Shown here: positions 31,063-43,924 of the stretch, in pieces
Layout: every line of letters starts with the position of its first letter
How positions within the stretch are numbered: the stretch's first letter is position 1
NCBI RefSeq assembly: GCF_058153355.1
Contig: NZ_CM177019.1
Strand: one strand, 5' to 3'
Length of the DNA stretch: 64,000 nt
The notes under the pieces: generated by a model
The model's database searches: none
The model's input: the letters and a program-made list of their open reading frames with translations, nothing else
Told to the model about the DNA's origin: nothing
Position numbers and translations under genes: made by a program

Positions 31063-31118
31063 ACCTTACCTCATCAATCGCTTGTAGTTATATGTTGTGT
31101 TGTGCACATCTATCCGTT

Positions 31119-31146
31119 TAGACGTCCAGATGTAAAGATGAAGGAA
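31119..31146. promoter_or_regulatory. tandem MetJ boxes in the metF promoter
   Basis: tagacgtccagatgtaaagatgaa: consecutive 8-bp repeats resembling the AGACGTCT met-box consensus, about 60-85 bp upstream of the metF start. Confidence 0.7.
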
Positions 31147-31414
31147 AAGCTGAAGGGCGTCAACCGAAAAATGACCAATGATGGTGAGGAAAAATCAGGG
31201 AAGATGAAAAAAATTCAGGATAAAGGCCAAAGTTCCTCGTACCTGAACATGTGGAATATACCTCATTTAAGATGATATTTATTTGTTTAATTATTTTTTC
31301 TATTAACCGGTGCAACGAGTGTTAAAGCGTGTAATTTTAGGATTATATCAATAGTCACGGTTATACAAACAGTGATAATTTATGAAATAATTTTATTTAC
31401 CAGAGGAATAGCGC

Positions 31415-32389
31415 ATGTATCTTAATACTCAAGTTCAATATAATAAGTTAAATAAAGATGAAAAAAAGATCCTGTTGTTACAAAAGCTAGCCCATTTAAC
31501 TGATTTTACTTTTGACAGAATAGAGACATTTTCAGCATTTGGACAATCTACTGAAACAGGTGTTTTTAAATATAAAGATGGCAATGAATTTGTTGTTGTC
31601 CCCGGGGATACAGTAATATTAGGGTGGGATGCCAGTCTCAATAATATGGATGGTCCGACAAAACAAGAATTTGAAGAGATGTTGGAACCAGAAGGTTTAG
31701 ATTTGAATAATTATCTCACCGACTCTTGCACACCTGTCAGGAAGGTTACAATTTCCCCGATGCTGGTTGAAAGAAACGTTCACGCCGAACCAAGTTGGAA
31801 GGAAGTATCTCTTACGGACCCCCGCATCACAGAGAACAGCATGCTGCAAAAATTTCTGTCTGATTATATGGAAAAAATTAATCCTGGAGTTCACGAATTA
31901 AACGCAAGATTGAAATTACAATATATAGATGGGGATTTATTTGCACAAATATATGAATCAATTAGCTATGATGAGTTACTTCAAAATATCCAAAGCAATA
32001 GTTTTGATCTTCCGAGCGAAGATGAATGGGAATATTTATGTGGCGGTGGTTCCAGGACACTCTGGCGCTGGGGGAATAATTTCGACTATCAAATGAAAAT
32101 CCCATTTATTACTTCAGAAGAACCAACAACCTGGGATATAGAATGGCCTAATCAGTTTGGGTTGCAGATTGCATTTGATCCCTATCTTCAGGAAATTATT
32201 AATGATAAAGATATTCTTCTGAAAGGTGGCGATGGTGGGTGCAATCTCTGCGGAGGTGCTAATGTTGTATTAGGATTCTTGCCTGTGGCAACTTATTACA
32301 AAGGATATAATAAACATACGGACGAATTAGAATATATGGATGACATTGGAGACAATTATACTTCTTATCGCAGAATAATTCGTTTATGA
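31415..32389 (+). CDS. hypothetical protein, FGE-sulfatase (SUMF1/EgtB/PvdO-like) domain suspected
   Basis: 324-aa ORF, very AT-rich by eye; motifs FVVVPGDTVILGWDAS, SEDEWEYLCGGGSRTLWRWGNNF and NQFGLQI resemble the MVxIPGGxFxMG, AEWEYAxRGG...PWG and NxxGLxDM motifs of formylglycine-generating-enzyme-like domains; no signal peptide. Confidence 0.5.
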   Translation: MYLNTQVQYNKLNKDEKKILLLQKLAHLTDFTFDRIETFSAFGQSTETGVFKYKDGNEFVVVPGDTVILGWDASLNNMDGPTKQEFEEMLEPEGLDLNNYLTDSCTPVRKVTISPMLVERNVHAEPSWKEVSLTDPRITENSMLQKFLSDYMEKINPGVHELNARLKLQYIDGDLFAQIYESISYDELLQNIQSNSFDLPSEDEWEYLCGGGSRTLWRWGNNFDYQMKIPFITSEEPTTWDIEWPNQFGLQIAFDPYLQEIINDKDILLKGGDGGCNLCGGANVVLGFLPVATYYKGYNKHTDELEYMDDIGDNYTSYRRIIRL

Positions 32390-32440
32390 GTAAAAATTAT
32401 ATTTCAGGACAAGAAGTTATGCTCGGGTCAAGCTAATGAA

Positions 32441-33952
32441 TTGCTTAACGCAAGGAATAAAAACGTATTGATGAACACTGGGAATTTCGAGTCGATACAA
32501 ATCATGATCGACGCGCAAGAGTGGCGTAGCCTGCCGCTGCATCTGCGTCTGTATCACGCTTTTCGCCAATTGGTGATTTCCGGCGCATTGTCTGATGGCG
32601 CAAAACTGCCTTCCGCTCGCGCACTGGCCCAGCAACTTGGTCTTTCCAGAGATACCATCGAAAATGCCTATTCCCAGCTCCACCGCGACGGTTTTATGGC
32701 TCGCAGGCAGGGGGCCGGGAGTTTCGCCAGCCGCCAGGGGATACCGCATATTCAGGGCCAGCATGCGCAACCACCCTCGCCCGGACAAGTACCGGCTTTA
32801 AGCGCTCGCTGGCAGCCAATTGCCGATCGCGCAGTCTCTTTCGATGCCCGCCAGATGCAGACCTTTACGCTTGGCCTGCCGGAAACGCGAAACTTCCCGC
32901 TAAACATTTGGCAGAACTTTTCCCGCCAGATCCAACGTGAGCAGGCACATACGCTGATGTTAAATAGCGATCCGCAGGGCGAGCCACAGCTGCGCCAGCA
33001 AATTGCGCATTACCTTAATTTTGAACGCGGCGCGAAGGTAGATGCCGGGCAGATTGTGATTGTCAGCGGCGCACGGCAGGCGTTCTGGCTGTGCGGGCAA
33101 CTGCTGGCAGAGGCCGGACAGTCGGTGGCGATGGAAAATCCGGGCTATCCCGGCGCGCGTCAGGCGTTTTCTGCCGCACAGCTTAATCTTCTTCCCGTTG
33201 AAGTGGATGACGCCGGGATCCGGGTGGATAAACTGCCGCCCGCGCCGCTGGTTTACGTCACGCCCTCGCACCAGTTTCCTTCCGGTCATTTGCTCACGCT
33301 GGCGCGGCGTCATGCCCTGATTGCCTGGGCGCAGGCGCACAATGCGTGGATTATCGAAGACGACTACGACAGCGAATTTCACTACACCAGCGCGCCCGTC
33401 GCCTGTCTGCAAGGGTTAGACTGCGAGCAACGCACCCTGTATGTCGGCACTTTCAGCAAAACGCTCTATCCCGGCCTGCGCATCGGTTATCTGGTGGTGC
33501 CGACGTCGCTGGCTGCGCACTTTGCCGCCGCGCGTAATTTGCTTGATGGCGCAACGCCTGCGTTATCCCAACTAACGCTGGCGCGATTTATCGAGTCCGG
33601 TCATTTTGCCGCCCATATTCGCAACATGCGTAGTATGTATGCGGTGCGACAGGGGTGCCTGGCAGAGGCTATTCATCAGCACTTAAGTGAATGGGTCACG
33701 CCAGTGGTGACATCCGGTGGATTGCAAATGCCCTGCTGGCTGCATGGAGGTATTGATGAGCAACAGACGCTGAATGCCGCGCGCCGCGCCGGGTTAAACA
33801 TCGCCGGAATGCGCCAGTTCTGGCTGACGCACCCCGCGCACGCGGGCTGGCTGCTGGGATTCGCCGCCTTTACCCCCTACGAGATTGAACAGGGCGTCAA
33901 GCGTCTGCGGGCTGCATTATGCACTGAAAACGTGCGCCCAGCCGGGTCATAA
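32441..33952 (+). CDS. MocR/GabR-type regulator (GntR HTH fused to a PLP aminotransferase-like domain)
   Basis: 503-aa ORF; N-terminal GntR-like HTH (LPSARALAQQLGLSRDTIENAYSQLHRDGFMARRQGAGSF) followed by a roughly 350-aa aminotransferase class I/II-like region; true start may be an internal Met; GC-rich by eye. Confidence 0.8.
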   Translation: MLNARNKNVLMNTGNFESIQIMIDAQEWRSLPLHLRLYHAFRQLVISGALSDGAKLPSARALAQQLGLSRDTIENAYSQLHRDGFMARRQGAGSFASRQGIPHIQGQHAQPPSPGQVPALSARWQPIADRAVSFDARQMQTFTLGLPETRNFPLNIWQNFSRQIQREQAHTLMLNSDPQGEPQLRQQIAHYLNFERGAKVDAGQIVIVSGARQAFWLCGQLLAEAGQSVAMENPGYPGARQAFSAAQLNLLPVEVDDAGIRVDKLPPAPLVYVTPSHQFPSGHLLTLARRHALIAWAQAHNAWIIEDDYDSEFHYTSAPVACLQGLDCEQRTLYVGTFSKTLYPGLRIGYLVVPTSLAAHFAAARNLLDGATPALSQLTLARFIESGHFAAHIRNMRSMYAVRQGCLAEAIHQHLSEWVTPVVTSGGLQMPCWLHGGIDEQQTLNAARRAGLNIAGMRQFWLTHPAHAGWLLGFAAFTPYEIEQGVKRLRAALCTENVRPAGS

Positions 33953-33956
33953 TCTC

Positions 33957-42826: not shown

Positions 42827-42847
42827 AATAGATAATGAGATATATTT

Positions 42848-43708
42848 ATGTGTATAAAAAAGCACGGGATAGCTTTATCGATTCTATTAATACCTTGCAT
42901 TGGAAACGCTCAGGAAATTAAAAGTGAGGAAGGCTGGTTACATCAAAGCTTGAATGTCATTGGTCGCACAGACTCTCGCTTTGGCCCAAGGCTGACTAAC
43001 GACCTCTACCCTGAATATACTGTAGCAGGAAGAAAAGACTGGTTTGATTTTTATGGTTATGTTGATCTACCAAAATTCTTTGGCGTCGGCAGTCACTATG
43101 ATGTTGGGATCTGGGATGAGGGCTCACCACTATTTACGGAAATAGAACCTCGGTTTTCCATTGACAAATTGACCGGATTAAATCTTGCGTTCGGCCCTTT
43201 TAAAGAATGGTTCATTGCAAACAACTATGTCTATGATATGGGTGACAACCAGTCATCCCGGCAAAGTACATGGTATATGGGGCTTGGTACAGATATCGAC
43301 ACGGGTCTACCAATTAAGCTTTCTGCCAATATATACGCCAAGTATCAGTGGCAAAACTATGGTGCCGCTAATGAAAATGAATGGGACGGATATCGATTCA
43401 AAATAAAATATAGCATTCCTCTTACCCATTTATTCGGAGGGCGATTGGTATACAATAGTTTTACTAACTTTGATTTTGGATCCGATCTTGCGGACAAATC
43501 ACACAATAATAAACGAACCAGTAATGCTATTGCTTCAAGCCATATCCTTTCCCTGCTATATGAACACTGGAAATTTGCATTTACACTACGTTATTTTCAC
43601 AACGGTGGACAATGGAATGCTGGGGAGAAAGTTAACTTCGGAGATGGTCCATTTGAATTAAAAAACACAGGATGGGGAACCTATACTACTATTGGTTATC
43701 AATTTTAA
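42848..43708 (+). CDS. Tsx-family outer-membrane nucleoside-specific channel protein (paralog of tsx)
   Basis: 286-aa ORF, AT-rich; signal peptide then blocks matching E. coli Tsx from memory ([97 protein letters not shown]) and a C-terminal aromatic residue. Confidence 0.85.
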
Positions 43709-43854
43709 ATCAGGTGATGTTTTAGATATTTTTACTTAATGCCATTTTGTAATTGTCATAAATAACTTCACCATTCACACTGTGAATTCATCGCTCAACA
43801 CAAAAGCCCCCTTATTACCGGGGCACTGACCAAAGGCAAAATGACAATCAATCA

Positions 43855-43876
43855 CCACCTCCGCAGGAGGTGGTTT
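43855..43876 (+). terminator. terminator hairpin after the Tsx-like gene
   Basis: ccacctccgcaggaggtgg followed by ttt. Confidence 0.5.
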
Positions 43877-43887
43877 AGAGGTGACAA

Positions 43888-43914
43888 CAAAAGCTGGCAA
43901 CTGCCAGCTTTTGT
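43888..43914 (-). terminator. terminator hairpin immediately downstream of metL
   Basis: aaaagctggcaactgccagctttt palindrome flanked by A/T runs, directly 3' of the metL stop on the minus strand. Confidence 0.6.
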
Positions 43915-43924
43915 TCAATAATCA

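Follow-up and report, generated by a model that had tools for sequence, protein, structure and literature searches.

The stretch of DNA considered here, a window of 64,000 nucleotides (contig NZ_CM177019.1, assembly GCF_058153355.1) from an Escherichia chromosome, carries nine genes between metF and metL, which encode an FGE-like protein, a MocR-type regulator, an alanine-racemase paralogue (Alr), a GlyA-family SHMT paralogue, three secreted 5'-nucleotidases (Nuc1, Nuc2 and Nuc3), a zinc-ribbon protein (ZnR) and a Tsx paralogue (Tsx2) (Table 1). This interval is interpreted, with a probability of about 0.7, as an ancient variable slot of the Enterobacteriaceae, which is not a mobile island and does not form one system, and whose core is a CRP-linked nucleotide-scavenging unit with ZnR as its regulator.

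The core pair is syntenic far beyond Escherichia. The arrangement metF...Nuc1(-)|ZnR(+)...metL is present in Citrobacter youngae, C. braakii, C. portucalensis, C. werkmanii and further Citrobacter species, as well as in Pseudocitrobacter, Klebsiella pneumoniae, Superficieibacter, two Kluyvera species, E. whittamii and other Escherichia, and Nuc1-ZnR is found between metF and metL in at least eight genera. The Nuc1 protein is 92 % identical to its counterpart in Salmonella and 88 % identical to that in Klebsiella, with a ratio of nonsynonymous to synonymous divergence (dN/dS) of 0.04, while its synonymous divergence (dS) from Salmonella and Klebsiella amounts to 1.17 and 1.95, respectively, the values for metL and metF being 0.96-1.34 and 1.04-1.08. 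Such a core-like dS fits vertical descent from a common ancestor and, taken together with the synteny across genera, indicates that K-12 acquired its tight metL-metF junction by deletion and that the core of the island is ancestral.

Different cassettes surround this pair in different genera, including LysR + CMD, PTS-EIIC + MalI, the FGE-like gene and a 332-aa membrane protein. The slot holds LysR, CMD, Nuc1 and ZnR in Klebsiella and Citrobacter, and Nuc1, ZnR, PTS, MalI, LysR and CMD in Kluyvera. In a lineage of Salmonella enterica it reads metF|MocR|Alr|SHMT|Nuc|ZnR|hyp332|MscS|metL, with the common genes in the order and orientation of the window and with both enzyme genes intact. The slot of E. 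albertii contains only the FGE-like gene, and that of strain GF4-3 contains PTS-EIIC, MalI, MocR/Alr/SHMT, Nuc1 and ZnR, where PTS and MalI replace the FGE-like gene. Nuc2-Nuc3-Tsx2 and the FGE-like gene are likely to be old horizontal acquisitions.

Within E. coli, for which frequencies were counted over 5,426 complete genomes, Nuc1+ZnR is carried by 1,838-1,844 genomes (34 %), Nuc2-Nuc3-Tsx2 by 658-660 (12 %) and MocR/Alr/SHMT by 3 (0.06 %), two of which also have the FGE-like gene. A preliminary description of this DNA, made from the sequence alone, had placed nine open reading frames (ORFs) between metF and metL and expected K-12 and most E. coli to lack them; all nine are found there, and the full form exists in only 2 of the 5,426 genomes. 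Its view of an old, multi-layered locus rather than a recent mobile-element insertion agrees with the cross-genus synteny and the core-like dS. The nine genes had further been taken as one combination of unknown kind, which is not supported, as four modules occur independently, three at the frequencies given above and the FGE-like gene alone in E. albertii. Nor is the combination wholly unrecognised, since its five-gene nucleotidase/Tsx part corresponds to a region already presented as GR 31 in the relevant passages of PMC12928451.

Table 1. Features of the metF-metL interval and its flanks (positions in the 64,000-nucleotide window)
Feature	Position	Strand	Description
metF	30172-31062	minus	flank of the interval
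Variable segment	31222-43924		12,703 bp; junctions placed by blastn comparison with the K-12-like HT-948
FGE-like orphan	31415-32389	plus	cytoplasmic, FGE/SUMF fold, 324 aa
MocR	32471-33952 (ORF open from 32441)	plus	GntR helix-turn-helix + aminotransferase-like; convergent with SHMT-Alr operon
Alr	33957-35003	minus	alanine-racemase paralogue; TIGR00492, 216 bits (cut-off 168)
SHMT	35003-36238/36304	minus	GlyA-family paralogue; PRK00011, 605 bits (cut-off 335); PDB SHMT matches; intact in window
Nuc1	36514-38067	minus	secreted YfkN/UshA-family metallophosphatase/5'-nucleotidase, 517 aa; conserved core gene
Nuc1/ZnR control region	38068-38199		divergent, 132 bp; conserved in ten genera and second-site clusters
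Conserved block TTACGTTCTGAAAG	38104-38117		in Nuc1/ZnR control region
Palindrome CAACGA-N10-TCGTTG	38171-38192		abuts ZnR start
ZnR	38200-39327	plus	375-aa cytoplasmic protein; two Cys4 zinc ribbons + C-terminal RNase H-like (DDE transposase/integrase) fold
CRP-like site TGTTACTAAGATCACA	39446-39461	plus	1 mismatch; ~100 bp upstream of Nuc2
Nuc2	39557-41110	plus	secreted 5'-nucleotidase paralogue; 58 % identical to Nuc1
Nuc3	41145-42770	plus	secreted 5'-nucleotidase paralogue; 66 % identical to Nuc1; ~22-residue insertion
Hairpin between Nuc3 and Tsx2	42781-42811		13-bp stem, AT-rich
Tsx2	42848-43708	plus	Tsx paralogue, nucleoside-specific outer-membrane channel family; PRK15106, 491.8 bits (cut-off 311)
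Two hairpins between convergent Tsx2 and metL	43854-43915		GC-rich, terminator-like
metL	43925-46357	minus	flank of the interval

ZnR and the control region shared with Nuc1

The ZnR family is small, with 123 of 1.84 billion cluster representatives matching it at E<=1e-3. Its relatives in AFDB50 all belong to Enterobacterales, Vibrionales and related Gammaproteobacteria, where their labels read 'cytoplasmic protein' or 'IS1 family transposase'. The two ribbons of ZnR are formed by C10/15/40/43 and C74/77/97/100, and at least 36 of the 44 family members compared retain these eight cysteines. At the sequence level, similarity to the InsA/IS1 ribbon is confined to the second of the two (Zn_ribbon_InsA; E 0.043 for the query itself, E<=1e-3 in 7 of the 44 members, best 1.4e-7). 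The NCBIfam profile transpos_IS1 (NF033558) reaches 20.4 bits, with a cut-off of 100, and covers only its positions 1-62 of 199, while no DDE domain in ZnR is matched by Pfam or NCBIfam. Where the first two acids of a DDE triad are expected, the 44 members have a conserved T/S122 (beta1) and a conserved P222 (after beta4), and E248, after beta5, is the only invariant acid; R198, H229 and H247 are also conserved, and D202 is acidic in most members. ZnR appears to be a domesticated IS1/IS1595-like DDE transposase which, judged from these secondary-structure positions, seems to have lost its catalytic triad. Its dN/dS of 0.11-0.28 denotes purifying selection and hence a functional gene, which evolves fast (57-60 % amino acid identity between genera versus 88-92 % for Nuc1). 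Only chance-length inverted repeats are found around the ZnR gene of the window.

The genomic contexts of ZnR are consistent. A scan of one genome per species with a ZnR alignment gave 26 loci, to which the proteins of the window were mapped. Upstream DNA is available for 25 genome loci, and in every one of them a Nuc1-like gene lies divergent from ZnR. Among these is a second type of locus, organised as ZnR<->Nuc1-Nuc2(-Nuc2)-Tsx-Nuc3-radical-SAM. More distant homologues, with 26-33 % identity, have as their divergent neighbour a 5'-nucleotidase gene in Vibrio and, in Salmonella, genes encoding a porin, a class-B acid phosphatase and the class-II cyclic-nucleotide phosphodiesterase PDEase_II. 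In other cases this neighbour is a NupC-type transporter with a PNP/UDP phosphorylase, or an add-deoC-deoA-deoB-deoD operon next to which a nucleoside ABC transporter of the Bmp type is encoded. Across about 30 contexts the ZnR gene is always monocistronic and divergent, never lies within a catabolic operon, and almost always has neighbours involved in nucleotide or nucleoside scavenging; the single exception is homologue P0165, whose neighbours (MatP and a radical-SAM gene) are uninformative. This constant layout is the signature of a dedicated regulator, and the odds that ZnR is a dedicated regulator of nucleotide/nucleoside scavenging operons are judged to be about even. A fuller proposal is put forward more tentatively, with the odds slightly against it, namely that ZnR represents a new gammaproteobacterial transcription-factor family, derived from an IS1/IS1595-like DDE transposase by duplication of the ribbons and inactivation of the core, which would sense nucleosides or nucleotides and control nucleotidase-Tsx, nupC-phosphorylase, deo and porin-phosphatase-phosphodiesterase operons.

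The control region has a CRP core without mismatches, TGTGA-N6-TCACA (TGTGAGAATACTCACA), at 38127-38142, with 65-67 bp separating it from each of the two start codons. In an alignment of 19 such intergenic regions, drawn from 10 genera, 15 have the core in perfect form and all 19 keep its TCACA half-site. As the Nuc1/ZnR alignment is conserved across genera, the start of Nuc1 is taken as the ATG at 38067. A pattern scan of the 64-kb window returns only three CRP matches with at most one mismatch, two of which are in the two promoter regions of the island (the second being the site upstream of Nuc2). CRP dependence of the Nuc1/ZnR promoter is thus a prediction from these motifs, and the TTACGTTCTGAAAG block and the palindrome CAACGA-N10-TCGTTG are candidate ZnR operators. 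One CRP site is seen in the Nuc1/ZnR region, and AATGTAAC-like words, as recognised by CytR, are visible upstream of Nuc2, by eye and without statistics.

E. coli holds two deeply diverged ZnR alleles (38200-39327 of the window versus locus L003, 4631-5761, and locus L002, 4630-5754). The allele of genomes lacking Nuc2-Nuc3-Tsx2 differs from that of the window with a dS of 1.84 and 72 % amino acid identity, and its last ~200 nt are unaligned and overlap metL. In genomes possessing Nuc2-Nuc3-Tsx2 the ZnR allele has a dS of 0.21 against the window. The adjacent Nuc1 differs with a dS of only 0.11. The two identity classes of ZnR (~1,173 versus ~670 genomes) match the absence and presence of Nuc2-Nuc3-Tsx2.

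Several points weigh against the proposed reading. The non-CRP blocks of the control region do not recur elsewhere in the window, for instance upstream of Nuc2, so a common ZnR operator for both operons is unsupported, and the CRP-like sites of distant ZnR homologues carry 1-2 mismatches and are weak evidence. ZnR has no recognisable helix-turn-helix (HTH). H229, H247, E248, D202 and R198 are invariant or nearly so and could form an active site, in which case ZnR might be an enzyme or nuclease instead of a regulator, and the loss of the triad is deduced from secondary-structure positions rather than from a residue-level superposition. The dS of 1.8 between the two E. coli alleles of ZnR is unexplained by simple vertical descent. 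The dS of MocR, SHMT and Alr against Salmonella is 0.42-0.52, about half of the core value, so this module may reflect a later exchange, by recombination via the conserved flanks, and not a strictly vertical history. Finally, the regulatory and enzymatic steps of the proposal are computational predictions.

It is worth asking whether ZnR is a regulator at all, or instead either a decaying insertion sequence (IS) remnant or an enzyme of nucleotide turnover, such as a nuclease or phosphoesterase built on the RNase H-like scaffold. The fold itself, the invariant His, Glu, Asp and Arg residues of its core, the lack of a detected HTH and the fast evolution of ZnR relative to Nuc1 are all compatible with this view. 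The remnant version is excluded by the dN/dS of 0.1-0.28, the intact ORF in all genera and the confident fold, while the monocistronic and divergent position of ZnR in some 30 contexts is a typical layout of dedicated regulators, and the partner operons, which share the nucleoside/nucleotide pathway, offer no common chemistry for a single enzyme. A non-regulatory ZnR is therefore regarded as unlikely, and the reading of ZnR as the regulator of the scavenging core is retained.

Nucleotidases, Tsx2 and clusters at other sites

Nuc1, Nuc2 and Nuc3 share 54-66 % pairwise identity. Their N-termini resemble Sec signal peptides, as read by eye, and their architecture consists of a Metallophos N-domain followed by a 5'-nucleotidase C-domain (Pfam PF00149 + PF02872 on orthologues, with full-length NCBIfam matches). 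Nuc1 is ~98 % identical to PDB entries 3IVD/3IVE, an unpublished structural-genomics structure named 'Nucleotidase', and the literature search found nothing on the biochemistry of 3IVD, 3IVE or c4898. UshA is only a distant relative of the Nuc proteins (84-88 bits versus 764-1113 bits to 3IVD). The nearest relatives of Nuc2 outside Escherichia are 73-76 % identical (Kluyvera and other Enterobacteriaceae). The substrates of Nuc1-3 and the direction of flux through them are putative assignments. Tsx2 aligns over residues 29-286 with residues 11-272 of 1TLW, that is, over the whole barrel, at ~70 % identity estimated by eye.

Nuc1 is annotated as frameshifted in E. coli JNEC-KY177 (locus L002, 2945-4497), and the core gene is thus also lost occasionally. 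The three nucleotidase genes contain a stretch with unusual conservation at the DNA level (36940-37180, 40151-40236 and 41808-41893), seen as an 86-nt direct repeat of 73 % identity plus inverted matches to Nuc1, which may result from gene conversion or from a strongly constrained active-site loop. The VPARQSS segment of Nuc1-3 was considered as a formylglycine motif (C/S-x-P-x-R) that would explain the FGE-like and anSME-like neighbours, and this was rejected, as the first position is Gly and mature Nuc1 contains no Cys. The hairpin between Nuc3 and Tsx2 may be an attenuator or processing site and could modulate read-through into Tsx2.

Related clusters are found at other chromosomal sites, beside kdsA in E. 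coli SCPM-O-B-8794 (locus L029, 135-10131), between shiA and nac in Citrobacter sp. wls619 (locus L044, 1779-10116), and also in loci L041 and L028. These clusters include a co-oriented radical-SAM/SPASM gene resembling an anaerobic sulfatase maturase (anSME-like), and an FGE-fold gene likewise neighbours the metF-metL cluster. Their homology ends at the ZnR stop codon on one side and inside or after the radical-SAM gene on the other; terminal inverted repeats were not searched at those ends.

The nucleotidase/Tsx module might serve extraintestinal pathogenic E. coli (ExPEC) mainly as a host-interaction or virulence factor, through immunosuppressive adenosine or the degradation of ATP and signalling nucleotides, rather than as a nutritional device. 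Its presence in lineages of ExPEC and avian pathogenic E. coli (APEC), such as ATCC 25922, ST131 and BEN2908/UTI89/RS218, and its absence from K-12 point in this direction, and the superfamily also contains surface 5'-nucleotidases from Gram-positive pathogens (matches to NCBIfam Nt5e). However, the core pair is conserved in environmental and commensal genera too (Kluyvera, Superficieibacter and Pseudocitrobacter), the CRP site and the nupC and deo contexts of ZnR homologues suggest catabolism, and the signal peptides predict periplasmic and not surface enzymes. A primarily virulence-related role is thus held to be distinctly unlikely, and nucleotide scavenging is preferred as the function of the module.

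Junctions, base composition and passenger genes

In the K-12-like strain HT-948, with which the window is collinear at 95-98 % identity across all common core genes, metF and metL are separated by 348 bp. The 159 bp adjoining metF (31063-31221) are common to both (98.7 % identity), and the variable segment of the window has as its counterpart 189 bp of unrelated REP-like DNA. No relic of the island beyond the 159 common bp was found in the intergenic DNA of the K-12 type. The HT-948-type spacer (locus L004, 2723-2911) includes a REP-like palindromic sequence GCCGGATTCGTCGTAAACGCTTAATCCGGCCTA and an annotated hypothetical ORF of 44 aa; the REP-like sequence may mark the scar of the deletion. 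The closest complete genomes to the window are those of strains 2013C-4282 and WL297 (~98-99 %).

Base composition varies strongly within the segment, as had been noted by eye, with a GC content per gene of 36.5-58.8 %. The AT-rich genes are the FGE-like gene (36.5 %), Tsx2 (40.0 %), Nuc2 (40.7 %) and Nuc3 (44.3 %), ZnR (47.5 %) and Nuc1 (47.9 %) are intermediate, and SHMT (55.8 %), MocR (58.5 %) and Alr (58.8 %) are the most GC-rich, the flanking metF, katG and metL having 52.6 %, 55.4 % and 57.6 %, respectively. The composition is therefore a mosaic (four genes at 36-44 %, two at ~48 % and three at 56-59 % GC) without a uniform foreign signal. The MocR/Alr/SHMT block had been described as more GC-rich than the core, whereas its GC is core-like and about equal to that of metL. 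The further statement that mobility genes are absent stands insofar as no integrase, tRNA or flanking repeat is present, and needs qualification in that ZnR has a transposase-like fold; it holds in the sense that nothing looks active. Specifically, there are no tRNA or tmRNA genes in the whole 64-kb window, only chance-length direct or inverted repeats flank the segment, and none of the nine proteins matches an integrase or recombinase family, the sole related signal being the weak IS1 zinc-ribbon match of ZnR. The nine proteins have only weak or irrelevant matches to PHROGs and no match to the PADLOC defence models, and a reading as a defence system was dropped on the latter ground.

Insertion of a horizontally acquired island between metF and metL by a recent mobile element would account for the four AT-rich genes (36-44 % GC), the patchy presence in E. 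coli, the transposase-like fold of ZnR and the occurrence of a related nucleotidase/Tsx cluster at other chromosomal sites of other strains. It is improbable nonetheless, as no tRNA, integrase or terminal repeat accompanies the segment, Nuc1-ZnR is syntenic in at least eight genera with core-like dS, the FGE-like gene and its upstream spacer have homologues at the same site in E. albertii, and the homology of the second-site clusters stops at the ZnR stop codon, where inverted repeats were not searched. An ancestral core with cassettes exchanged around it is the preferred interpretation of the same mosaic.

The left half of the interval is occupied by two modules. MocR is matched by the NCBIfam family PdxR (NF052282) over residues 32-489 with 426.6 bits (cut-off 320), the HTH-only matches (LldR and HutC) being confined to residues 40-99, and it is 89 % identical at the amino acid level to its Salmonella orthologue at the same locus. 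SHMT and Alr form an operon, the stop codon of the former overlapping the start of the latter by 1 nt. Alr is of the alphaproteobacterial type, with Bartonella Alr (3KW3) as its closest solved structure. In the window, a Tyr-to-stop mutation (33957-33959) removes the last 20 residues of Alr (...NTIP*EIMTRLG), and the full-length gene would reach 33896, according to its translation compared with loci L001 and L006. SHMT is interrupted by a Gln-to-stop mutation in 2013C-4282 and WL297 and by a different one, at codon 19, in GF4-3. One enzyme gene is thus broken in each of the four Escherichia carriers, the window included, and three independent nonsense mutations in four carriers indicate relaxed selection and decay of the module in Escherichia. 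A hydroxymethyltransferase reaction of the alpha-methylserine type yields D-alanine (EC 2.1.2.7; PMC7918591), and it may be speculated that SHMT and Alr are paired for an EC 2.1.2.7-type reaction to D-alanine followed by racemisation. Nothing useful was found in the literature on STM4102-4104.

The FGE-like protein shows the FGE (C-type-lectin-like) fold, with a Pfam match spanning only 43 residues (E 6e-4) and no NCBIfam match. Its gene is under strong purifying selection (dN/dS 0.07), and no sulfatase gene is present within the interval as a partner. The E. albertii gene at the same site encodes a protein with 84 % amino acid identity, and its upstream spacer is homologous as well.

The view that all nine genes form one co-functional system, for example a regulon joining one-carbon and amino-acid metabolism to nucleotide salvage beside the met genes, can draw on their contiguity, on the MocR-Alr-SHMT-Nuc-ZnR order kept in Salmonella and on 5,10-methylene-tetrahydrofolate being both the product of SHMT and the substrate of the neighbouring MetF, but is highly improbable, as the modules occur apart at frequencies differing up to ~600-fold, lie on different strands with separate promoters, are replaced by unrelated cassettes in the same slot of other genera, and include a MocR-module enzyme gene that is nonsense-mutated in every Escherichia carrier next to nucleotidase genes under strong purifying selection.

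Other variable DNA was seen in and around this slot. In Salmonella enterica GCA_018535225.1 (locus L020, 3592-5450) the slot carries an MscS paralogue and the 332-aa multi-pass membrane protein, which has no family match, and a frameshifted homologue of the latter is present in the slot of Superficieibacter (locus L039). Elsewhere in the window, ~3.1 kb (2759-5849) between the oxyR-side and argH-side matches have no counterpart in the K-12-like genome, and this segment includes, at 2799-5423, a gene of the ManD-type D-mannonate/galactonate dehydratase family and an MFS transporter gene. Another ~1 kb without such a counterpart (57209-58229) contains an ORF on the plus strand (57470-58186; 238 aa) that has no NCBIfam match.

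Proposed function and comparison with known systems

In the proposed scheme, the exported Nuc1 and the cytoplasmic ZnR would constitute the core pair, with ZnR acting as the specific transcription factor at a shared cAMP-CRP-dependent promoter, and Nuc2-Nuc3-Tsx2 would be a second CRP-linked operon added in this lineage. Carbon limitation, through CRP-cAMP, and a nucleoside or nucleotide signal sensed by ZnR would together switch on expression, placing an extra Tsx-type channel in the outer membrane and Nuc1, Nuc2 and Nuc3 in the periplasm. There the nucleotidases would strip phosphate off extracellular nucleotides, and the resulting nucleosides would be imported via the existing NupC/NupG and catabolised by the deo/udp/cdd pathways, or salvaged. 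The left half of the interval would consist of unrelated passengers, i.e. the MocR-regulated SHMT-Alr operon, as in Salmonella, and the FGE-fold orphan, as in E. albertii, and the K-12 junction would have arisen by deletion of the whole content of the interval.

Such a history reverses the usual reading of this site, as the textbook adjacency of metL and metF in K-12 becomes a deletion scar and the 'island' of ExPEC strains a remnant that predates the split of Escherichia, Salmonella and Klebsiella. An ancestral slot affects how 'gained' virulence-associated regions such as GR 31 are scored in pangenome analyses, and the repeated independent nonsense mutations in SHMT and Alr show clearly how genes are still being lost from a slot on which selection acts differentially. 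ZnR becomes a testable candidate regulator of nucleotidases that are present in a third of E. coli (including the ST131 and ST95 lineages) and apparently widespread in K. pneumoniae. If its proposed origin and role are correct, ZnR would be a third type of regulator for the pathway beside CytR and DeoR and a rare domesticated DDE transposase in bacteria, the bacterial counterpart of a process described mostly in eukaryotes, and the widespread 'IS1 family transposase' mis-annotation of the family would be corrected.

The literature search returned nothing useful on bacterial DDE transposases domesticated as regulators, and neither the origin nor the role of ZnR seems to have been described. ZnR has a transposase-type zinc ribbon in common with IS1/IS1595 transposases, and its own fold is RNase H-like. 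It differs from them by the duplication of the ribbon and an extra C-terminal beta-sheet/helical region, by an IS1 score below the cut-off, no DDE domain detectable by sequence and no conserved acids at beta1 or after beta4, and by its cross-genus synteny, its purifying selection and its occurrence in 1-2 copies per genome, each paired with a Nuc1-like gene.

The MocR module resembles the regulons of PdxR and other MocR regulators, in which a GlyA-family SHMT is recurrent (PMC5320631), in that a MocR regulator lies beside genes for enzymes dependent on pyridoxal phosphate. In the window, however, the putatively regulated pair is SHMT with an Alr of alphaproteobacterial type, and Escherichia is losing the enzyme genes.

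GR 31 (metL..metF) of APEC BEN2908 and ExPEC strains, for which a role in nucleoside processing and transport has been proposed (PMC12928451), occupies the same site and is described there with three nucleotidase ORFs with UshA domains, a Tsx-like ORF and one hypothetical ORF; a five-gene form of this type is present in ~12 % of the complete E. coli genomes. Towards metF the window additionally carries the FGE-like, MocR, Alr and SHMT genes, four in all, which are found in 2-3 of the 5,426 genomes, and the passages of PMC12928451 dealing with GR 31 are silent on the zinc-ribbon protein, the CRP site and the age of the locus across genera.

The closest functional parallel is the CRP/CytR nucleoside regulon (tsx, udp, cdd, deoCABD, nupC and nupG) together with UshA, which follows a like logic in that a Tsx channel and periplasmic hydrolysis feed import under cAMP-CRP. 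The likeness rests on the whole-barrel alignment of Tsx2, the Metallophos + 5'-nucleotidase-C architecture and the perfect CRP core. The Nuc proteins, however, are of the YfkN type and only distantly related to UshA, neither a CytR operator pair nor tandem CRP sites were identified at the locus, and the regulator associated with the locus is a zinc-ribbon protein of transposase fold instead of a repressor of the LacI or DeoR family.

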